The notes under the pieces: generated by a model
What the model was told of the DNA's origin: nothing
The model's database searches: none
Seen by the model: the letters and a program-made list of their open reading frames with translations, nothing else
IMG/VR virus record: IMGVR_UViG_3300037264_006254
Span: 1-61,812 of that record
Reading direction: 5' to 3' (one strand)
Source of the DNA: a virus
Lineage: Duplodnaviria; Caudoviricetes
DNA: 61,812 bases
Shown here: positions 24,290 to 41,212 of the stretch, one piece after another
Position numbering within the stretch: the first letter of the stretch is position 1
How the letters are laid out: the number at the start of each line of letters is the position of its first letter
Made by a program: the position numbers and the translations under genes

Positions 24290-25690
24290 TCAATCGGTGA
24301 TCATTGTTTCCGGCTCATCAAGCAGCAAGTTGCGCGCCGCCTCGAGACCTTGTTGGTAGCTGTGGTCCTGATTACCATACTCATACCGCCAGGCGCCGAA
24401 CCGACCGCGGCTTAGCACACCTCGCTTTCGAAGCTGAGGTTGAAGCACCGCTAGGGCTTCTACTCGTCCCGGAGTCGGGACAGGGTACGCGTATGGAAGG
24501 TGTTCCGCCCAGAGGCTGAGCGTCTCTGTGTCCCAATTGCAATGCTCCGCGATGTCGAGCTCCACAAGTGACTTGATGCAGCGCTCGAAGAGAACATCGC
24601 GAGGAGGTATGACCTCATTTGCAGTGAACGCGATCTCACACATGTAGCCGACGGCGGGGCCTGTCCCAACGCGGTCGCGATGGCGTGTCATGGGCGCATT
24701 GGCCTTGGCGTATTTGGTGAAGTTCGTGACTCGGTAGAATGGTATCTCATCCCGCGGTTGCGGGTAGTAGGCCCAGCTCCAGTCGGGCAGGCGCGTCTCT
24801 GCGAAACCGACGCCGATGACCATGACCTGATTGTGACGGAGCTTCATGGTCTCGAGAAGATTCTGTCCCTTGTGCAAGTCACTTTGCTCGATGAGTTGAT
24901 TCAGTGGCATCGTGCTGATTAGCTTGTCGTAGGTCGTGGTGCGACCGTCCGCGAAGTAGATGACACGCCGGCCGGTGTCGATACGAACGGTGCGAGCGTC
25001 ATAGATGATGGGGTTTCGCAGCGTCTTCGCGACTCGTCGCCAGATCTCACCCGTGCCACCAGCGGATGGGAAGCTGAACATGGAGTTCGGACCCCACGCC
25101 TTCTCTACCGTGCCGTGTGTGAGGTTTCGCAGCACAGCCTCGAGGCTGGGCTCTGAGACCCGCTCTGCCATCCAGTCACTGCTCATCTGATCGGGTGGGG
25201 TAGCCCATACCTTGGCGTTGTAGGGACCCATGAAGTGTTGATAGGCTCCTCGGCCGAATGCTCTGATTGCCCACGACTGGAAGTCATCGCCCTGCGGGTC
25301 ATCAGCACCGCGCGTAATCATGCCCTTGATGACGTCATACGCCATGTCGGGCGGCATGTCACTTGGGTGGTTCTGAAACGGGTACGGGACCTCACGGTAG
25401 TCAGTCTGTGCTGAATCGCAGACGAGAATGTGACTGGAGCGGTCATGCCGCTCAATCTCATCACCCATGACCTCTTCGAGGACGTGATCGAACTCACCGA
25501 AATGACTGAAGACGACGTGACCGCCCTTGTCCCAGGTGAACCCAGCTGGGTCAACCTTGCTTCCGGCAAGACCGCCGGCGGTGCGGCTCGCCTCGAAGAG
25601 CTGATATTCGGTGTGGCCGAGCTCATCGAGAGCGCGCGCAGCACCGAGGCCGGTTGGTCCCGCACCGAGGATGACGATGCGATTGCTCAC
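24290..25690 (-). CDS. FAD-dependent UDP-galactopyranose mutase-like enzyme (eukaryote-type UGM motifs)
   Basis: GAGPTGLGAA, GGHVVFSHF, VPYPFQN, PYNAKVW, W.AERV, WGPN..F.FP..GGTG.IW, PFYRVT, SRGRFGAWRYEYGNQDHS; GTG start overlaps the GT stop. Confidence 0.8.
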   Translation of the reverse strand: MSNRIVILGAGPTGLGAARALDELGHTEYQLFEASRTAGGLAGSKVDPAGFTWDKGGHVVFSHFGEFDHVLEEVMGDEIERHDRSSHILVCDSAQTDYREVPYPFQNHPSDMPPDMAYDVIKGMITRGADDPQGDDFQSWAIRAFGRGAYQHFMGPYNAKVWATPPDQMSSDWMAERVSEPSLEAVLRNLTHGTVEKAWGPNSMFSFPSAGGTGEIWRRVAKTLRNPIIYDARTVRIDTGRRVIYFADGRTTTYDKLISTMPLNQLIEQSDLHKGQNLLETMKLRHNQVMVIGVGFAETRLPDWSWAYYPQPRDEIPFYRVTNFTKYAKANAPMTRHRDRVGTGPAVGYMCEIAFTANEVIPPRDVLFERCIKSLVELDIAEHCNWDTETLSLWAEHLPYAYPVPTPGRVEALAVLQPQLRKRGVLSRGRFGAWRYEYGNQDHSYQQGLEAARNLLLDEPETMITD

Positions 25691-26733
25691 CTTGCAGCAC
25701 GTTTCATCGCGTCGCTGATCGTTTGATCTGCGTGTTCCCGCGACCAATAGTGCTGATAGATCGCGATTTGCTGCTGGCGACCGAGCTCCCAGAGCTCATA
25801 GTCACCGAGCTGCTCGATTTGTTCCGCGGTCTGCTGAAACGCGGGACCGAGCACGCCGGCCTCAGCTGGATCGCCCAGGATCACACTGCCAGTGGCGGCC
25901 GTGTAGTTGTAGCGAATGCGCCACCAGCCCGATCCCATGAGACGCGTGTAGCGAGGTGAAAGCGTGCCCCAGTTTTGTGAGGTTCGGTCGAGAACCTCCT
26001 GCTCAGTAACGCGCTCAGCCTTGAGCTTGCGGGAGCCGAGATACATGACCGGCCACTCGATCCCTTGTTTGTTCACCCACTTGTCCTGGGGTGAAAGCGC
26101 CGCGCAGATCCACTGGCGATTTCTGTCGGAGCTCAGCTCCGGCAGAATCTTGCCGTCGAAGGCATATGGGCTGTAGTCGACGCAGGTAAGCTGCTCCGCA
26201 GTTGCTGGGAGAGCCTCTGTGAACTGGCTGTGGTCACCCCAAGCAAAAGCGGGCAGGATACCGGCCCAGTGCAGTGGCCAGGGGTCTCGGAGGCGTTGAG
26301 CGCCGTACATGAGCTGATCGTGATATAGATCACAAGTCTCATCATCTTCCTTGTGGTAGAGACGAGCCGCATCCGTGCCCTTACCGATGGTCTTGTTGAG
26401 GTACCAAGGATGAGTTCCGAGCGTACGAAGGTGGCTCATTTGGGAACTCATCTGCCAGTCTGATTCATACAGCAAAACCGGAGTGTCGTCCTGCTGAGCG
26501 ACCCACAGCATTCCGAGAACGCCGTGTCTGGTGTTGAAGGAAAGGGCCTGGTTGAGCACGCCGATGATGAGGTCGTAGCCGCTGAGGTCCTCACCGACGC
26601 TGACGCGCCGCTGCTCAAGTGTGCCGATCCGACGGGCCGCGTCGAGAAGGGGCTGATCCATGTTCCAACGAATGGCATCACGCTTGGCATCGCCACACTC
26701 GCGGGCTGACATGCCGGTGTAGAGGATTTTCAC
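25687..26733 (-). CDS. Putative DNA glycosyltransferase (GT-B, T4 BGT-like)
   Basis: MKILYTG N-terminal strand; C-terminal WGTLSPRY..GSGWWRIRY...GSVILGD resembles the BGT-type second domain; lies in the nucleotide-modification operon. Confidence 0.55.
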   Translation of the reverse strand: MKILYTGMSARECGDAKRDAIRWNMDQPLLDAARRIGTLEQRRVSVGEDLSGYDLIIGVLNQALSFNTRHGVLGMLWVAQQDDTPVLLYESDWQMSSQMSHLRTLGTHPWYLNKTIGKGTDAARLYHKEDDETCDLYHDQLMYGAQRLRDPWPLHWAGILPAFAWGDHSQFTEALPATAEQLTCVDYSPYAFDGKILPELSSDRNRQWICAALSPQDKWVNKQGIEWPVMYLGSRKLKAERVTEQEVLDRTSQNWGTLSPRYTRLMGSGWWRIRYNYTAATGSVILGDPAEAGVLGPAFQQTAEQIEQLGDYELWELGRQQQIAIYQHYWSREHADQTISDAMKRAAR

Positions 26734-27023
26734 TCTGATATCTCAAGAAGCTCGATGACGGTACGACCCCGATCATAGTGAAGCACGGGATCAATGATGT
26801 ATTGGCCCTCGAGATTACATGCCTGCACTTGAAACGACGGCGCCGTGTCAGTGTTCCACGTCGCGGCCTCAAATTCTTCAAGACAAGCGACGAAGTGCTT
26901 TTGCCACTTTACCGGCATCGATTGAAGTAGCGAACGGTTGAGCACGAGGTAGTTAGAGTAGCTGAGACCGAACATGAGGTGAATCGGCTCAGAATCGTTA
27001 GAACAGACGCGACTGACCTTCAT
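26730..27023 (-). CDS. Hypothetical phage protein
   Basis: 97 aa; GTGA overlap with GT; FGLSYSNYLVL.RSLLQSMP..WQ. Confidence 0.6.
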   Translation of the reverse strand: MKVSRVCSNDSEPIHLMFGLSYSNYLVLNRSLLQSMPVKWQKHFVACLEEFEAATWNTDTAPSFQVQACNLEGQYIIDPVLHYDRGRTVIELLEISE

Positions 27024-27041: not shown

Positions 27042-28427
27042 CTAGAACCTGGGATTTTCGGCCCATTCAACGTACTCTGGGACGCCGGGGCGAGCGTCGA
27101 TCTCTTTGGTGAGCGCGACCGAACGCGAGTCACCCTCAGAGCCATCCTTCTCACTGCGATACCTCTTGAAGTCGTTGCTCACGTCGAGCTTGTACTCCCG
27201 ATCACCGATGAGGTCACCCCGCCACTCACCCGGGCTACCATCGAGGGCACGCTTAATCCACCCACCGACCCAACGACCGCACGGCACAGTCACGGCCTTG
27301 CCATATACGGCTTGACCGCCGCCTTGTGTGTAGGAGTCGAGCTGCCAGGCGTCGGGGAAGCCCATGATGCGAGCGGCCTCACGGTAGGTGAGGGTACGGT
27401 CCTGCCACGGGTGGATGATGCACGTCAGCCCATTGCCGGCGAGCACCCGCCCGATCTTCTCACGCTTCCACCGTTGCGGCTGGTAGACACCGCCCTGAAA
27501 GTCGGTTCGGAGACAGGTAGCCTGAGCCTTCGCGTCCCAGCCCTCTGGGAACTGACCTCCGGTCGCGTCATAGTGACGCTTGATCACATCGACCATCTGT
27601 TGGCCGGGAGCCCACTCTCCGGTAGAGAGCGCGGCGGCTACCCTGCTGAAATGCCCCAGCTCGCGGCCGGTCTTATCACCGTAGGTCATCAGGCCATCCA
27701 CCTCGCCGCTTTTGTTACGGTAGGGTGCGGCCCAAGAGGTAGCTGATCGTGCGTAAGCCAGTGGACCCCACTCCTCGATCGGCAGATCAAGATCGCCGAT
27801 CGCCATCTCGATCGTCGGGACACCATGCTTGAGAAGTGGTGTTTCGATACCAAACGGAACCTTGCTTAGCACGAGGAAGTACCGCCGACGCACTGAGCAA
27901 CCACCCACGGACGCGGCGTTGTGAAACGTGTGTGTCAGTGTGTACTGCTCGCCGGTGAGCTCCTCGAGGTGATTCCGAAGTGCGAGCATGAGACTGTGAC
28001 CGCCCTTTGGTGTGTCTTTTCCAGCTCCCTGCACTGACTCCATTACCACGATCGTCGGGCCCAGACCGTCGTTCACACGGGCGGCAAGTTCCATTGTGAT
28101 CCACATGCAGGAGTTAACGGGAGCGTCGGCGCCGCGATAGTCCTTGCGCCCTCCACCTGCGTTTCCAGCACGGACGGACATCAAGCTGAACCCGGAACAC
28201 GGCGGAAGTGAGGCAACGACGCTGATGTCGTTCAATGGCTCCCACTCTGCTGGCATTCCGATTTGATAGTCCCACTTCTTACCGAGTAGTTCGCGGTTCG
28301 CGTCGCACTGAGCGATTCCGAAACCACCCTTTTGTTCATATCTCCGTTGAAGCTCCAATCCAGATTGAACGAGACCGAGATCAAGACCTCCGCCAAAAGT
28401 CTGGCAACCCACGTACTTGTACTTCAT
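27042..28427 (-). CDS. Divergent DNA cytosine-C5 methyltransferase-like protein
   Basis: Motif IV PPCSGFS, VI ESV, VIII RRRYF, IX RTLTYREAARIMGFP, X GKAV; motif I degenerate (CQTFGGG). Confidence 0.8.
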   Translation of the reverse strand: MKYKYVGCQTFGGGLDLGLVQSGLELQRRYEQKGGFGIAQCDANRELLGKKWDYQIGMPAEWEPLNDISVVASLPPCSGFSLMSVRAGNAGGGRKDYRGADAPVNSCMWITMELAARVNDGLGPTIVVMESVQGAGKDTPKGGHSLMLALRNHLEELTGEQYTLTHTFHNAASVGGCSVRRRYFLVLSKVPFGIETPLLKHGVPTIEMAIGDLDLPIEEWGPLAYARSATSWAAPYRNKSGEVDGLMTYGDKTGRELGHFSRVAAALSTGEWAPGQQMVDVIKRHYDATGGQFPEGWDAKAQATCLRTDFQGGVYQPQRWKREKIGRVLAGNGLTCIIHPWQDRTLTYREAARIMGFPDAWQLDSYTQGGGQAVYGKAVTVPCGRWVGGWIKRALDGSPGEWRGDLIGDREYKLDVSNDFKRYRSEKDGSEGDSRSVALTKEIDARPGVPEYVEWAENPRF

Positions 28428-28849
28428 CAGTCCCATCCCTCAGATTCAGGTTCATCAGTTGCATTGCCGTTCTCGTCTTTGTTGGTTTCGGCTTCATAAA
28501 GACCGGCTTGGCGCGAACGGTTGACCTGTTGCTTCGCCGCATAGCGAGCTGATAGCTCATCATCGCTGAGACCAAGTGCGCAGGCGAGATTAGCGACGAA
28601 ATGAAGCACGTCCACCAACTCCTGCACTGCACGATCACGGTGGATGACTTTACCTCGATCCGCGACCCACGGCTTCCAGCTCGGTACCTCCGCGAGAAAC
28701 TCACCCAGCTCAGCCACCAACGCGGTTACGTTCCACGTGATGTAGTCAGCTAGCTCCACATCCGGAAGCAGGTCAACATTCACGTCGAATGCCTCACGCT
28801 GAAGGCGACCGGTCTCCTCAAGCCAAGAGCCGAACATCGGCGCGGTCAT
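28427..28849 (-). CDS. All-alpha dCTPase/dUTPase (T4 gp56 / dUTPase_2-like)
   Basis: E..E...E..WKPW...ELVDVLHF...Y..K...N..RQ..Y. Confidence 0.8.
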   Translation of the reverse strand: MTAPMFGSWLEETGRLQREAFDVNVDLLPDVELADYITWNVTALVAELGEFLAEVPSWKPWVADRGKVIHRDRAVQELVDVLHFVANLACALGLSDDELSARYAAKQQVNRSRQAGLYEAETNKDENGNATDEPESEGWD

Positions 28850-36125: not shown

Positions 36126-36707
36126 TTACAGCAGCTGTGTCTGGGCAATCCCGCACGTTGCGAAGAACTCGGCAGTTCGTTGAGGTTCCCGGTCTCGGTC
36201 AGCCTCAGTAATGCGATACACGACGCGAATGAGCCCACTGTTGGAGAGATTCTTCGCGCACCCGAAACACGGGCAGCTGGTTACGTACGCCGTTCCGCCG
36301 ATGAGACACTTATGATCAGCGAACACCAAGGCGTTGACCTCAGAGTGAACAGACACACAATCATCATACGAAAGTGAGCCGCCGGTCTTTGCTCGCTCAC
36401 AGAAGGTATCGCAGGTCTCATTTGCGTCGAGCAATCGCTTGGCGCCGATTCGTTCGTACTCAACACGAAAACCGCCCGGCGGTCCGTTATAGCCGGCGGC
36501 AATGAGCTGATTGTCCACGGACACGAGCACACAACCTGCTCGGCGCCGCACACAGCGACTACGAAGCGCGATGGTGTCGGCCACGGCCATCCACGTCTCA
36601 TCCCAAGTCGGTCTTAGCGACACTTGAGCCGGCTCTTGCTCGGTTCCGTCAGGGTTCATGTGGTCGTGGTGCATAGGAAGTCGTCTTACAGAATCTTCGT
36701 CGGCCAT
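36126..36707 (-). CDS. dCMP deaminase
   Basis: RPTWDE, GYNG, HSEVNA, PC..C. Confidence 0.9.
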   Translation of the reverse strand: MADEDSVRRLPMHHDHMNPDGTEQEPAQVSLRPTWDETWMAVADTIALRSRCVRRRAGCVLVSVDNQLIAAGYNGPPGGFRVEYERIGAKRLLDANETCDTFCERAKTGGSLSYDDCVSVHSEVNALVFADHKCLIGGTAYVTSCPCFGCAKNLSNSGLIRVVYRITEADRDREPQRTAEFFATCGIAQTQLL

Positions 36708-37307: not shown

Positions 37308-39040
37308 TTGCTCCACCGGTCCATCGGCTGCGACGCGTCCACCGCGAGCGGAACCTTGAAGTTGGTGCGGTCTTCCATCGCGGGGATCGCGCGGGCACGC
37401 ATTTCGAAAGCCTCATCAGTCGGTACCTCCATGATAACTTCGTCGTGAACCGGCAAGCGCAGGGTCGGACCGAGCTCCACAAGATCAAGGTTGACCAATG
37501 CGCGCTTGAAGACGTCGGCAGCCGTGGCCTGGATCAGGAAGTTGACGCCGGCGTACAGCCGATCGTTGTCCACCACGAGCCGTCGGCCGAACGGCGTGCG
37601 AACCCACGCCTTGCCCTCTTCCTTCAGGCGACCGCGCATGACCTCCTCGAGATCATGCTGAAACTTGGTGGCGCCGGGAAACATGATCTCATACTTTTCA
37701 TAGAACGCCTTGCCCTCTGCCTCACTGATGCCGGCGGTCTGTGCGAACTTCCGCGACCCACCGCCGAACACACGGCAGAAGTTGGCGCTCTTCGTTACCT
37801 GATACTGAGCCCTCGAGGGCTCAGCGTCGCCGAGATCGTACACCTCTTGTGCGACGATCGTGTGAAGACTGTAGCCCGCCCGAATCCGTTCGATCATCTG
37901 CTCTTCATTGGCGAAGTGCGCGAACAGCCGCATCTCCACCTGCTCGAAGTCGATGCTGAGGAGCTTGTGATCGTCGCGCGGGATGAACGCGTTGCGAACG
38001 ACGTCACCGCGCGGGAGAGTCTGCAGCGCCGGTTCCGTGATCGACATGCGACCGGTTCGAGCGCCGACCTGGCGGATCATCATGTGAAGCACGTCACCGT
38101 CACGAAGCTCCAGGAAGTTCTTGAAGTACGTGTTCGCGATCTTCTGGGCCTTCCGTGTGTTGAGAACGGCGGCGGCGAGAGGGTGTTCGAGAGCCTCTAG
38201 CACCTCCATATCCAGGCGCAACGCACCGCCCGGAGTTCGGCTGGTGAGCTCCACCCCGTCCCGTGTCAACCGGCCGGTCACGTCCTTGTTGGAGCCGGGA
38301 TGGACGCCGTACTCTGACTGGCACCAGTGCTGCATCTGTTCGTGATATGCAATCAGGCGCTCGTACTTGGTCTCGCAGTACTCCACATCAATACGCGCGC
38401 CGGTCATCTCCATGCCGAACAGGACAGAGGAGGTGGCACGTTCGAGGTCGTACATGCTCTCCATGCCGAGCTCACGCACCTGAGGTATCATCAACTCCCA
38501 GAGCTGAGCCGAGAGGATCGCGTCAAGCGCACCGTACGCCCAATAGGCAGGCAACTCGATCGGGACGGTCTTCCACGTCCATTTGTTCTTGTTCATCGCC
38601 TCTTGCAGCATCGCCTCACCGGCGACTGCGTTCGGGTCGATGAGTCGGGCTGCCAGGTTCTTCAGGCCGAGTCGCTCATTCGGTGCGAGCAGGTGGGCCA
38701 GGAGCATGGTGTCGTGAACTTGGTCGGTACCGAGTGTGATGCCGGTGTACTGCGCGAGGTATCGCTGGTCGAACCTGACGTTGTGACCGACGATCGGTCC
38801 CTCATAGTCGCGCAAACACTCCTTGACCAGGCCCTTCCAATCGTCGAAGGGAATTGACCAACCCGTCTTGGCGTCGCCGAACTGCACGAGGCGAAGATTT
38901 TCTCTCCACCAAAAAAGCCCTTCTGTTTCGGTATCAAACCCCAAAACTGGACGTCGCTCTCCCAACCATCTCTTCATCATCATTGCGTCCTCAACACACG
39001 TCACAAGATGGACTTTGACATGCTCAAGTGGACTACCCAC
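37304..39040 (-). CDS. polA: DNA polymerase, family A, with 3'-5' exonuclease domain
   Basis: DTET, HNVRFD, TGRMS..EP.LQ, DFEQVEMR, K..NF, QATAAD, VHDE. Confidence 0.93.
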   Translation of the reverse strand: MGSPLEHVKVHLVTCVEDAMMMKRWLGERRPVLGFDTETEGLFWWRENLRLVQFGDAKTGWSIPFDDWKGLVKECLRDYEGPIVGHNVRFDQRYLAQYTGITLGTDQVHDTMLLAHLLAPNERLGLKNLAARLIDPNAVAGEAMLQEAMNKNKWTWKTVPIELPAYWAYGALDAILSAQLWELMIPQVRELGMESMYDLERATSSVLFGMEMTGARIDVEYCETKYERLIAYHEQMQHWCQSEYGVHPGSNKDVTGRLTRDGVELTSRTPGGALRLDMEVLEALEHPLAAAVLNTRKAQKIANTYFKNFLELRDGDVLHMMIRQVGARTGRMSITEPALQTLPRGDVVRNAFIPRDDHKLLSIDFEQVEMRLFAHFANEEQMIERIRAGYSLHTIVAQEVYDLGDAEPSRAQYQVTKSANFCRVFGGGSRKFAQTAGISEAEGKAFYEKYEIMFPGATKFQHDLEEVMRGRLKEEGKAWVRTPFGRRLVVDNDRLYAGVNFLIQATAADVFKRALVNLDLVELGPTLRLPVHDEVIMEVPTDEAFEMRARAIPAMEDRTNFKVPLAVDASQPMDRWSK

Positions 39041-40328
39041 GCTTCTTGATCAACTTCCGCACGGCATTGATTGCTTCTTCCGGTTCGTCGAGGCGCTGCT
39101 TGATGACCTCGAGAATGTCCGCCGGTGTGATCTTACCGCCCCGCAGGGCAGGCACTTCCGTGGGAAGCTGCGCCAACTCGAGCAGTTTGACGAGCTGGTC
39201 GTCGGTGAGGTATCCGATCTCCTCGACCACGTCAGCGCGACCGGGACGGATGAGTGCGGCGTCGAGAACGCTGATGTCGTTCGTGGTCATGATCGTGATG
39301 AGACCGTGTGGTGTGACGATCCCGTCGAGCGCGTTGAGCAGCGCGGACAGACTGATGCCCCGCGCCTTGTCATCACGAGTCTTGGCGCCGTGCACCACAT
39401 CGATGTCCTCGAGGAGAAGCAGACCCTTCGCCGGCACAGCGTTGACGATGTCGATGAGGTTTGCGTCACTGTCAAGTGAGCTAAGCGAGACGTAGTGAAC
39501 GTCGAGAGCAAAGTGGGTGCCGAGGGCGCGAGCCAGGCTGGTCTTACCGGTGCCGGGCGGCCCATGAAAGAGATACCCACGGTGCCAGGGAAGTCCGAGC
39601 ACGTCGTACCGCGCCTCATTATCGAAGAAATGTTGAAGGTCAGCGACGAGCCGTTCCTTCTGTTCTTCCGGGAGGACAACCGTCTTGAGATTTCGCTTCG
39701 GCAGGTCGGATCGTGTCTGCCAATCGCCCCATCGTGTCGTCATGAGCAGGCGTGGTTCGCGCTTCTTGACGAGCGTCAGGCTGAGTCGTTCGAGCTCACT
39801 GAGCACAGAGTCGCGGCCAGCAACGTCACGCGCGGTGAAGGTGATGATCTCTTCCTTGCGGGTGAGTGCAGTATTGGCGTCAGTTCGTGTAGTCTTGTCC
39901 TCTTGGTTGAGATTGATCTTGACCTTGTGGCCGGAGATGCTCACCGTCTGTTCCTTCGAGCCATCGAAGAAGACATGAAGAGACGACGGCGGCGGCTCTG
40001 GGCTGTCAAGCCACTCGGAAAGCGATGTTGTGCGGCTGCGGTAGCGAACTGCGATCGAGCGAAGCTTGCTCTCCGGCACCTGCTTCATGAGCCACTCACG
40101 CACAACGTCATAGAGCTCATCGTCGCCGGACACGGACACGACGAACTCAGTTTCGGTGCGACGCTGATCCGCGAACTGCTTGTAGGTCTTCCACGCTCCC
40201 AGCGCGACGAAGTACGCCGTGGCTCCGCGACGAACGTGCTTTGAGTACTTGCCATCGATTGCGGCGGAGATGAGAGAGTGAGGGAAGAAACTGACCGGGT
40301 TGCTCGACCCTTCGAGCGGGTTGCTCAC
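39033..40328 (-). CDS. BCS1-like AAA+ ATPase
   Basis: PWHRGYLFHGPPGTGKTS, LEDID, LSALLNALDG, MTTN, LDAALIRPGR.D. Confidence 0.85.
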   Translation of the reverse strand: MSNPLEGSSNPVSFFPHSLISAAIDGKYSKHVRRGATAYFVALGAWKTYKQFADQRRTETEFVVSVSGDDELYDVVREWLMKQVPESKLRSIAVRYRSRTTSLSEWLDSPEPPPSSLHVFFDGSKEQTVSISGHKVKINLNQEDKTTRTDANTALTRKEEIITFTARDVAGRDSVLSELERLSLTLVKKREPRLLMTTRWGDWQTRSDLPKRNLKTVVLPEEQKERLVADLQHFFDNEARYDVLGLPWHRGYLFHGPPGTGKTSLARALGTHFALDVHYVSLSSLDSDANLIDIVNAVPAKGLLLLEDIDVVHGAKTRDDKARGISLSALLNALDGIVTPHGLITIMTTNDISVLDAALIRPGRADVVEEIGYLTDDQLVKLLELAQLPTEVPALRGGKITPADILEVIKQRLDEPEEAINAVRKLIKKRG

Positions 40329-41212
40329 TCATCCTCCTGATTGACCCAATACTTTCGAAGCTTGTCGAGGTACCAGGACTCAGCGTGATTGAACGAACCT
40401 GGCTTCACGCCCTTGACCTTTCGGCCGGCGGCGACGTCGAGAACGTAGCGAGCACGCTCTGCGATCTCAGCCCACGTCATTCCCGGCGTGCCGATACCTC
40501 CCGGCAGTTCCGGTGGTCGTTCCGGGATGTTGGTCGGCTTTAGGTAGTCGAGGATGCCGACGTCGCGCTGGTAGAGGTGAAAGGACGTGGCGTGGTGGTG
40601 GTACGGGCCGCACGGAACGCGAAGCGCGTTGGCCATCGACATCTGCAGCTGGGTGAACTGAAAGAAGTCATAGCTCACGCCCCAGATCACATCGTTGGAG
40701 CGCATGTGGGTGTGGAGCTCGAGCTTCTGATCGCGGAGCATGAACTGAAGATAGATCGTGCACGGCAGGTCGCGCGGTGCAACCGGGACTGATCGGTCGT
40801 AGTTGGCGTCCCAAATGTTGGCCACCGCCTGCCGCGTTGTTTCGTCAGTGAGGAGAAGTGCCTCGATGTCATTGAGCTGCCAGCGCAGGCGTGGGCCGTA
40901 GGCACCGTGAAGCGCGGAGCCGTCCATGAAGTCCTTGAATCGCGGCTGCACCCGCTTCATCAAGTCAGGGTCGGTGACCCCACCGATGAGCTGAAGCGCT
41001 TCGGCAGCGGCGATGCCGAGATTGAGCTTGCGACCGACGCCAACGGGAAGCGAGTCGATGGGATCGTTGAGGGTGATTGACACATCTCGAAGTTCATAAG
41101 TCACCTCTCCCCTACACTTCACAGGCTTGCCTTCTTCTCTTACCCACTGGACAAGAGAGGGATAGTCATCACGAGCATTTTCCATAATGATGTCATGTCT
41201 ACCGAAGCGCAC
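40325..41212 (-). CDS. Thymidylate-synthase-family enzyme, dCMP-type (probable dCMP hydroxymethyltransferase)
   Basis: GAYGPR, TRQA, DLPC, MRSND..WG..YD, SFHLY; Asp at the position of E. coli ThyA Asn177. Confidence 0.8.
   Translation of the reverse strand: MRFGRHDIIMENARDDYPSLVQWVREEGKPVKCRGEVTYELRDVSITLNDPIDSLPVGVGRKLNLGIAAAEALQLIGGVTDPDLMKRVQPRFKDFMDGSALHGAYGPRLRWQLNDIEALLLTDETTRQAVANIWDANYDRSVPVAPRDLPCTIYLQFMLRDQKLELHTHMRSNDVIWGVSYDFFQFTQLQMSMANALRVPCGPYHHHATSFHLYQRDVGILDYLKPTNIPERPPELPGGIGTPGMTWAEIAERARYVLDVAAGRKVKGVKPGSFNHAESWYLDKLRKYWVNQEDE

Follow-up and report, generated by a model that had tools for sequence, protein, structure and literature searches.

In this study we examine a viral DNA record of 61,812 bases (IMG/VR record IMGVR_UViG_3300037264_006254; 87% complete according to CheckV, G+C content 58.8%), called the window throughout, and in particular one of its genes, which encodes a divergent protein of the cytosine-C5 methyltransferase fold. 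We refer to this protein and its relatives as Lys-type, after the lysine that they carry in place of the asparagine of methyltransferase motif X. The family has a fixed set of residue changes around the reactive carbon, and in viral genomes its genes are linked to genes for the synthesis of 5-hydroxymethylcytosine (5hmC, or hmC). The enzyme probably does something other than ordinary DNA methylation. The reading that we prefer, and hold tentatively, is that it is a virus-specific, neofunctionalized C5-methyltransferase-fold enzyme at the DNA-level core of an hmC system, that it would combine a covalent Cys-C6 mechanism and an adenosyl cofactor with a remodeled pocket, and that it would act most likely on cytosines that have escaped replacement.

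The gene lies on the minus strand (Table 1). An earlier sequence-only reading of this DNA had placed it at 27042-28427, which matches the minus-strand gene, position 28427 being the second of two candidate start codons: ATG 28436 gives a protein of 464 amino acids (aa) and ATG 28427 one of 461 aa. The plus-strand translation of the same interval contains stops throughout, and the single long open reading frame (ORF) sits on the minus strand. ATG 28427 overlaps the TGA stop of the adjoining MazG-like ORF by one base (cTGATGaag), has a GAGGG 11 nucleotides (nt) to its 5' side, and coincides with the start of an identical 461-aa protein in the database, P0002; we consider it the more likely start. 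Residues are numbered here in the 464-aa form. Every motif string listed in the sequence-only reading is present in the translation: CQTFGGG (residues 11-17), the PC within PPCSGFS (78-84), ESV (133-135), SVRRR (181-185), motif IX as REAARIMGFPD (352-362), and GKAV (379-382). No near-identical DNA was found in a collection of 50,697 phage records.

The window protein matches the Pfam family DNA_methylase (PF00145) at 47.5 bits against a cut-off of 22, over residues 73-392 only, and phrog_116, “DNA methyltransferase,” at 1.7e-28; with the NCBIfam dcm model (TIGR00675) it scores 25.3 bits, where the cut-off is 100.65. An AlphaFold2 model (33 homologs) has a predicted local distance difference test score (pLDDT) of 88.6 and a predicted template modeling score (pTM) of 0.90, and a Foldseek search with this model returns DNMT1, MET1, ZMET2, M.HaeIII and the prophage methylase 3g7u at E-values of 1e-13 to 1e-17. 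We took residue equivalences from a profile of the 33 homologs, whose alignment with M.HhaI and M.HaeIII covers motifs I-VIII and IX-X. The residues of covalent attack are retained: Cys80, at the nucleophile position of motif IV (PPC, 78-80), corresponds to M.HhaI Cys81, Glu133 of motif VI to Glu119, and Arg183/Arg185 to the motif VIII RxR. The changes concern three residues that surround C5 and the transferred group. Lys380 aligns with M.HhaI Asn304 (GNSV), with the GNAV of M.HaeIII and, in a single-sequence search, with the GNAV of ZMET2; Ser134 replaces Asn120 (ENV), and Ser81 replaces Gln82 (PCQ). Elsewhere, Ser181 replaces the Gln of motif VIII, motif I is shifted so that Gln12 and Phe14 align with M.HhaI Phe18 and Gly20, and Glu34 corresponds to M.HhaI Glu40, a residue with a ribose-binding role. 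Compared with the canonical C5-methyltransferases (M.HhaI, M.HaeIII, DNMT1/MET1; PF00145), the Lys-type enzyme has the same fold and the same order of motifs I-X, including PC, Glu, RxR and the RE of motif IX. It differs in having GK rather than GN, ESV rather than ENV, PCS rather than PCQ and QxFxGG (here QTFGGG) rather than FxGxGG, in the missing Gln of motif VIII, and in having, behind motif IV, an additional NxCMW block that hardly varies and, at the C-terminus, a conserved GDRExxIDV hairpin.

Are these substitutions fixed beyond the window protein? We aligned 266 sequences, made up of the window protein, 120 word-index matches and representatives from an exhaustive profile search. At position 380, Lys is found in 255 sequences, Arg in three, and Gln, Ser and Met in one each, with five gaps and no Asn; position 134 is Ser in 255, Cys in three, Thr in two and Ala in one, likewise with five gaps and no Asn. 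Among the catalytic positions, Cys80 is kept in 246 of 248 non-gap sequences, Glu133 in 260 of 261 and Arg185 in all 266. Position 16 is Gly in 234 of 238 sequences and position 34 is Glu in 206 of 246; because these elements of nucleotide-cofactor binding are largely kept, an adenosyl cofactor is likely to remain. Position 58 (M.HhaI D60) is mostly Gln or Glu across the family, and motif IV is mostly NPPC (LPPC in the window protein). Near-invariant residues specific to the family are Trp65, Asn108, Cys110, Met111, His169 and His342. The stretch between motifs VIII and IX, which usually varies among sequence-specific methylases with diverse targets, can be aligned family-wide and contains the invariant residues D215, W235, G248 and W275.

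A profile search of 1.84 billion representatives gave 240 matches at E ≤ 1e-30, 2,261 at E ≤ 1e-10 and 10,292 at E ≤ 1e-3. The 240 are cluster representatives at 50% identity, and none of them has Asn at the motif X position. We take the Lys-type clade, as delineated by these alignments, to be a sizeable and distinct subfamily apart from the bulk of the C5-methyltransferases. It also appears to be restricted to viruses. In a scan with one generic pattern through one genome each of 185,579 prokaryotic species, the best of the matches listed reached 26% identity. In the phage collection, relatives occur in 15 of the 50,697 records at 31-34% identity, and public records annotate relatives as methyltransferase or methylase. 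Since those in the collection are Gordonia phages, a Micrococcus phage and an “Actinomycetia” phage, the hosts are probably actinobacterial. Among the cultured carriers are Micrococcus phage Kurnik and four Gordonia phages (GMA2, Phendrix, GodonK and Sixama); on the base composition of the DNA of Kurnik and of the first three Gordonia phages, nothing was found in open-access PMC or bioRxiv.

The clade is accompanied by a thymidylate synthase (TS) homolog of a particular type. PMC13326640 gives the distinguishing residues: T4-type synthases of 5-hydroxymethyl-deoxycytidine monophosphate (5hm-dCMP) have Asp/Glu at the position of E. coli L143 and Asp at that of N177, with Asp169 retained; dTMP synthases have Leu143/Asn177; and 5-hydroxy-dCMP synthases have D169N. 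The TS homolog of the window (RDLPCT...MRSND...SYD) has Asp at the L143 and N177 positions, as the earlier assignment to an Asp type implied, and keeps Asp169, which is the T4-type 5hm-dCMP-synthase signature. Judged by this signature, the phage has what it needs for replacing C by 5hmC at the nucleotide level and, presumably, for adding galactofuranose. We assessed co-occurrence in 80 viral loci with relatives at 31-44% identity, together with a whole-contig search for TS in 45 records. A TS-family gene is present in 44 of the 45, including all 29 that are at least 90% complete; the sole miss is a record of 64% completeness. All 30 TS loci returned by the search have Asp143, Asp169 and Asp177. 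A TS-family gene is also present in each of the four cultured phages that we checked (GMA2, Kurnik, Phendrix and DSL-LC01), and in their printed alignments, read by eye, the TS has the Asp-type signature and the methyltransferase has ESV (ECV in DSL-LC01) together with GK. For scale, 1,062 of the 50,697 phage records match the window TS at E ≤ 1e-3. The near-constancy of TS alongside the ESV/GK clade argues for an enzyme that belongs with the hmC system and against an ordinary restriction-evasion methylase that stands on its own. Homologs independent of TS genes, which the sequence-only reading had named among the findings that would refute it, were not what the 45 records and the four cultured phages contained. 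Of the two partners expected to accompany the clade everywhere, the Asp-type TS does so, whereas the window's type of glycosyltransferase (GT) is not constant (14 of 83 loci). The proposed link to the hmC pathway stands, and the sequence is compatible with both of the readings offered, partial substitution that leaves some C for a second mark and an enzyme that acts on hmC itself.

The other constant neighbor is MazG. By tblastn, 67 of 83 loci have a MazG homolog just upstream of the methyltransferase gene; clustering puts the figure at 72 of 80. Among the 71 loci with both genes, the MazG stop falls within -122 to +30 nt of the start of the longest methyltransferase ORF in 48; another 13 have a gap of 31-300 nt and the remaining 10 a longer one. 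The sequence-only reading had described translational coupling to a dCTPase. The TGATG overlap fits coupling to the MazG-like gene; the specificity for dCTP comes from that reading alone. The sugar genes around this pair are variable. Of 80 loci, 65 have a sugar or GT gene cluster between -7 and +6 kb, and 15 lack all seven of the clusters counted. The interval between the gene for a single-stranded DNA-binding protein (SSB) and MazG may hold a protein of 456 aa outside any family (53 loci), a GT-like protein of 356 aa (29 loci) or NAD-dependent epimerases (22 loci), as well as nucleotidyl transferases and APH-type kinases. The constant unit consists of TS and kinase, farther off, and of MazG and the Lys-type enzyme, while the sugar chemistry varies. 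That the sugar genes vary while the MazG-methyltransferase pair is constant argues that the enzyme acts on the base rather than on a particular sugar.

What might a lysine in motif X do? There is a precedent for GKAV that the sequence-only reading did not include, namely Arg at the same position in CmoX and Lys in engineered M.MpeI and M.MedI. According to PMC12783734, Arg350 of CmoX (Synechococcus phage S-B43, PDB 8YF3) contacts the carboxymethyl group of carboxy-S-adenosylmethionine (Cx-SAM) in the crystal structure, R350N is dead, and the authors liken Arg350 to the engineered M.MpeI N374K. In PMC12015181, M.MpeI N374K and M.MedI N377K gain carboxymethyl transfer, with a kcat/KM for carboxymethyl of 14.52 for M.MedI N377K against 0.04 for the wild type (approximately 360-fold). 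In these enzymes, the residue at the motif X Asn position sets the group that is transferred. A fixed Lys and the smaller size of two residues next to C5 suggest that a polar or anionic group lies near C5, carried either on the cofactor or on the base.

It is tempting to combine these observations in the following scheme. The replacement system would consist of the 5hm-dCMP synthase, the nucleotide kinase, the MazG-like pyrophosphohydrolase and the Lys-type enzyme, to which variable GTs and sugar-nucleotide enzymes are added. A cytosine-type base would be flipped out of the phage DNA and held by Glu133 and Arg183/Arg185 while Cys80 attacks C6, and Lys380, Ser134 and Ser81 would accommodate and bind, at C5, a polar or anionic group instead of a bare methyl. 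The most likely substrate would be cytosine that had been incorporated unmodified into phage DNA. The enzyme may then have a “mop-up” role as the DNA-side partner to the pool-side MazG, leaving no plain C in the genome.

Several points weigh against this scheme. The geometry of the pocket is read from sequence alignment alone. A search of open-access PMC and bioRxiv, supplements aside, found no literature on the Lys-type clade and hence no biochemical datum for any member. In PMC12015181, too, M.MedI N377K supplied with S-adenosylmethionine (SAM) still methylates DNA, with >99% protection, so that Lys is compatible with plain methyl transfer. No donor other than SAM was identified: CmoA (TIGR00740) gave no match in the window record (87% complete) or in any of 45 relatives, 29 of them complete, and a Corynebacterium control genome was silent as well. 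Were MazG to hydrolyze dCTP efficiently, hardly any unmodified C would remain as substrate. The MazG-methyltransferase pair sits in a conserved replication module (PolA-SNF2-exonuclease-AAA_24-SSB), and its adjacency could therefore partly reflect shared ancestry and not shared function. Finally, phages with TS and GT genes that have neither MazG nor a Lys-type enzyme exist, e.g., Brevibacterium phage LuckyBarnes (by annotation only), which indicates that the enzyme is not required for hmC glycosylation as such.

Fusion proteins bear on what the enzyme acts upon. Among database representatives, the Lys-type domain is fused to FkbM-type domains (P0129, P0234, P0141), to Methyltransf_23 (P0159, P0178, P0207), to an FtsJ-like class I methyltransferase domain (P0127) and once to a 5-hydroxymethyldeoxyuridine (5-hmdU) DNA kinase domain (HMUDK_hel; P0256). 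Such partners suggest that the product or substrate undergoes further processing on DNA; they would connect the enzyme with the tailoring, in DNA, of a base that bears a hydroxyl or carboxyl group, without fixing the reaction. A search of viral contigs for relatives of the kinase fusion P0256 found none. As a separate gene, the 5-hmdU DNA kinase occurs in two of 46 records; we rejected it as a general partner, since at this frequency it cannot account for Lys380 throughout the family. In record G020 (locus L040, 8577-11245) a gene resembling the 5-hmdU DNA kinase comes directly before MazG and the Lys-type methyltransferase, the whole cluster running GT-like, class I methyltransferase, GT-like, UDP-glucose dehydrogenase, epimerase, kinase, MazG, methyltransferase. 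The TS homolog of this record (locus L097) is of the Asp (dCMP) type, and the arrangement suggests that the kinase may be a 5-hydroxymethyl-cytosine DNA kinase.

One alternative to action on escaped cytosines is that the enzyme acts on 5hmC in DNA or on an activated form of it. Cys80 would add to C6, the 5-CH2-O group held by Lys380 would leave to give an exocyclic methylene, and a nucleophile would be added or the group exchanged; such a reaction would parallel, on cytosine, the substitution steps of thymidine hypermodification. C5-methyltransferases can remove or derivatize the hydroxymethyl of 5hmC in vitro. The strict co-occurrence with TS of the 5hm-dCMP-synthase type fits such a reaction, as do the P0256 fusion and the kinase beside MazG and methyltransferase in a dCMP-type system, and the smaller Ser81 and Ser134 plus a Lys near C5 would suit a 5-substituted base. 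We nevertheless find this account doubtful. The kinase is rare (two of 46 records), a substitution without cofactor would need neither the ribose-binding Glu nor the cofactor-binding loop, both largely conserved, the co-encoded GT-B enzyme would lose its acceptor if the hydroxyl were replaced, and no conserved candidate for an enzyme supplying the nucleophile adjoins the gene.

The clade might instead be a DNA-level transferase that hydroxymethylates cytosine C5 (or adds another oxygen-bearing one-carbon group), making 5hmC directly in DNA, which we think unlikely. Cys80 would activate C5 of an unmodified cytosine and Lys380 would activate or carry the electrophile, for example as an iminium, in the way that methylene-tetrahydrofolate serves thymidylate synthase; GTs, kinases and O-methyltransferases would then decorate the 5hmC. 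If this were true, these phages would have two independent routes to 5hmC, the TS homolog in the nucleotide pool and the Lys-type enzyme on DNA.

Could the protein be an ordinary SAM-dependent 5-methylcytosine methylase directed against host restriction, its Lys and Ser being lineage quirks and its linkage to TS and MazG inherited synteny? The PF00145 score above cut-off, the intact motifs IV, VI (Glu), VIII (RxR) and IX, the annotation in public records, and the methylation with SAM retained by the engineered Asn-to-Lys enzyme would all agree with this. However, Asn is absent at the motif X position from 261 sequences and from 240 clusters, and selection evidently holds Lys and Ser; the dcm score is far under its cut-off (25.3 against 100.65 bits); the VIII-IX region aligns with invariant residues across the family; the matches listed in the genome scan include no cellular family member; and co-occurrence with the Asp-type TS is near total. 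We judge an ordinary methylase quite unlikely.

Decidedly unlikely, too, is a natural Lys-type C5 carboxymethyltransferase, or a transferase using another anionic SAM analog, comparable with CmoX and M.MpeI N374K, with the carboxyl handle esterified in some relatives by the fused class I methyltransferase domains. Lys occupies the exact position that confers use of Cx-SAM (255 of 261, with Arg in three), and fusions to class I methyltransferase domains recur. In PMC12783734, CmoX candidates are defined by an SPPC motif, Arg350 and a CmoA gene in the genome, and 4,257 CmoA genes accompany 5,615 candidates. The window protein has LPPC (NPPC in most of the family) instead of SPPC and Lys380 instead of Arg, and CmoA was found in none of the 46 records. 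The likely actinobacterial hosts also argue against this chemistry: CmoA/CmoB are mainly proteobacterial, with no significant match in M. bovis BCG, according to PMC6063277. The profile of the 33 homologs is closer to M.HhaI (71 bits) than to CmoX 8yf3 (23.6 bits), and an hmC genome would offer little substrate. We considered the Methyltransf_23 domain, fused or stand-alone, as a hidden CmoA-like cofactor synthase and rejected it; its best matches, at weak scores, are generic O-methyltransferases of the UbiG/Hen1 type. Last, a protein without catalytic activity that flips bases or binds DNA, and so offers modified cytosines to tailoring enzymes, would agree with the fusions to several different tailoring-type domains and with the constant position at the end of variable sugar clusters, but it is highly improbable given the near-invariant Cys, Glu133 and Arg183/Arg185 expected of an active enzyme.

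Table 1. Features of the window, with their positions, strand and supporting evidence
Feature	Position	Strand	Evidence or remark
UDP-galactopyranose mutase, long form, 485-aa longest ORF (start may be later)	24290..25747	(-)	E 1.4e-85 to 3uka/4dsg
GT-B fold glycosyltransferase, 348 aa, candidate DNA hmC glycosyltransferase	25687..26733	(-)	AlphaFold2 pLDDT 76.4 + Foldseek
97-aa ORF between methyltransferase and GT	26730..27023	(-)	no Pfam match
Lys-type C5-methyltransferase-fold gene	27042..28436	(-)	longest ORF 464 aa; likelier 461 aa from ATG 28427; PF00145, 47.5 bits
Lys380 codon	27297-27299	(-)	
Arg183/Arg185 codons	27882-27890	(-)	
Glu133-Ser134 codons	28035-28040	(-)	
Cys110 codon	28107-28109	(-)	
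Cys80 codon	28197-28199	(-)	
MazG/dUTPase_2-like all-alpha nucleoside triphosphate (NTP) pyrophosphohydrolase, 140 aa	28427..28849	(-)	PF08761, 46.4 bits; directly upstream, stop overlaps methyltransferase start
dCMP deaminase	36126..36707	(-)	
AAA+/BCS1-like ATPase between TS homolog and PolA	39033-40328	(-)	
Thymidylate-synthase homolog	40325..41212	(-)	best solved relative MilA CMP hydroxymethylase, 9.6e-18
Thymidylate-kinase-like nucleotide kinase, 331 aa	41297..42292	(-)	PF02223, 33.1 bits
2-oxoglutarate (2OG)-Fe(II) oxygenase, 217 aa	43498-44151	(-)	PF13640

The neighborhood of the gene agrees with the earlier description of a methyltransferase just upstream of a GT-mutase unit, the GT-B protein and the UDP-galactopyranose mutase lying downstream after the 97-aa ORF. 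The 348-aa GT-B protein falls into no family in sequence-level searches; Foldseek matches it to SenB, Gtf3 and the T4 beta-glucosyltransferase 1qkj (TMq 0.56). The 97-aa ORF matches the C-terminal parts of longer PHROGs of unknown function (phrog_3527, phrog_10794, phrog_33008). In the mutase, Pfam recognizes Amino_oxidase/NAD_binding_8 and not the GLF domain; its solved relatives 3uka/4dsg are the Aspergillus and Trypanosoma enzymes, i.e., of eukaryote type. Actinomycetia phage DSL-LC01 has a short GLF-type mutase in the equivalent cluster. A sequence search for solved relatives of the MazG-like protein gave no usable match. Farther upstream, the minus strand encodes an SSB-like DUF669 protein, AAA_24, a PD-(D/E)XK nuclease, an SNF2 helicase and a class II ribonucleotide reductase, and beyond the reductase dCMP deaminase, PolA, the AAA ATPase, the TS homolog and the thymidylate-kinase-like protein. 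Micrococcus phage Kurnik has an AAA ATPase at the place equivalent to that of the window. The PF13640 protein is the sole 2OG-Fe(II) oxygenase of the window; found in one of 46 related records, the window itself, it was rejected as a partner in the system.

Some further observations concern relatives and related pathways. One Lys-type enzyme (P0221) contains a Hint/LAGLIDADG intein, and several members have a C-terminal tail that by eye resembles a winged helix. In contigs lacking a Lys-type enzyme, a stand-alone Methyltransf_23 gene adjoins a kinase and a TS homolog at five loci, L117 (10016-14226), L122, L124, L125 and L132; L117 also has ThyX, and L117 and L132 also have dCMP deaminase. This stand-alone enzyme may be a further, undescribed member of hydroxymethyl-pyrimidine pathways. 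In LuckyBarnes (locus L214, 14010-17174), a “thymidylate synthase” of 517 aa, approximately twice the normal length, is followed by two glycosyltransferases, possibly a fused variant of the pathway.

How does the Lys-type enzyme compare with known systems? Apart from their residue differences, it is set apart from canonical C5-methyltransferases by its score below the dcm cut-off, its apparent restriction to viruses and its ties to hm-dCMP synthase genes. With CmoX and the engineered M.MpeI and M.MedI it shares a basic residue in place of the motif X Asn, and like CmoX it is phage-encoded and would belong to a hypermodification pathway. It differs in having Lys and not Arg and NPPC/LPPC and not SPPC, in the absence of any CmoA or CmoY-type ligase context that we could find, and in its association with a TS-type hm-dCMP synthase, which the available text of PMC12783734 does not describe for CmoX systems. 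Phage pathways that combine a C5-methyltransferase, a TET/5mYOX enzyme and GTs (PMC8256090; bioRxiv 10.1101/2023.12.21.572611) likewise have a C5-methyltransferase-fold gene clustered with DNA GTs, and their end product is presumably glycosylated 5hmC, as here. Tet_JBP (PF12851) was found in none of five records (the window and four complete relatives), a weak negative, since control genomes likewise gave no match. Here, in contrast, 5hmC would be made at the nucleotide level by the TS homolog, so that a methylation step is not needed to create the hydroxymethyl.

The closest parallel in gene content is with the hmC system of T4, which has the dCMP hydroxymethylase gp42, the dNMP kinase gp1, the dCTPase gp56 and alpha- and beta-glucosyltransferases. 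Both have an Asp-type TS homolog (L143/N177, Asp169 kept), a nucleotide kinase, an all-alpha NTP pyrophosphohydrolase and a GT-B enzyme, that of the window resembling the T4 beta-glucosyltransferase. We know of no C5-methyltransferase-fold enzyme in T4, whereas here such an enzyme is a fourth component throughout, its gene joined to that of MazG.

The Asn of motif X is a fixed feature of the C5-methyltransferases, which are among the best-studied DNA enzymes. Its change to Lys in the laboratory gave carboxymethyltransferases that are now used in enzymatic methylome sequencing, and in 2025 the natural Arg version, CmoX, was shown to initiate phage DNA hypermodification of a new class. To these the Lys-type clade adds a third group, natural and large (240 clusters, here in viral and metagenomic records only), in which Lys is fixed together with two further pocket changes, and its partners are those of an hmC pathway, not a Cx-SAM synthase. 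The cultured carriers GMA2, Phendrix, GodonK and Kurnik make the question directly testable. If the enzyme transfers a non-methyl group or acts on hmC, it would represent a new phage DNA reaction and a new scaffold for DNA labeling. If it merely methylates left-over cytosine, it would be a DNA-level back-up layer in cytosine replacement that is absent from T4.

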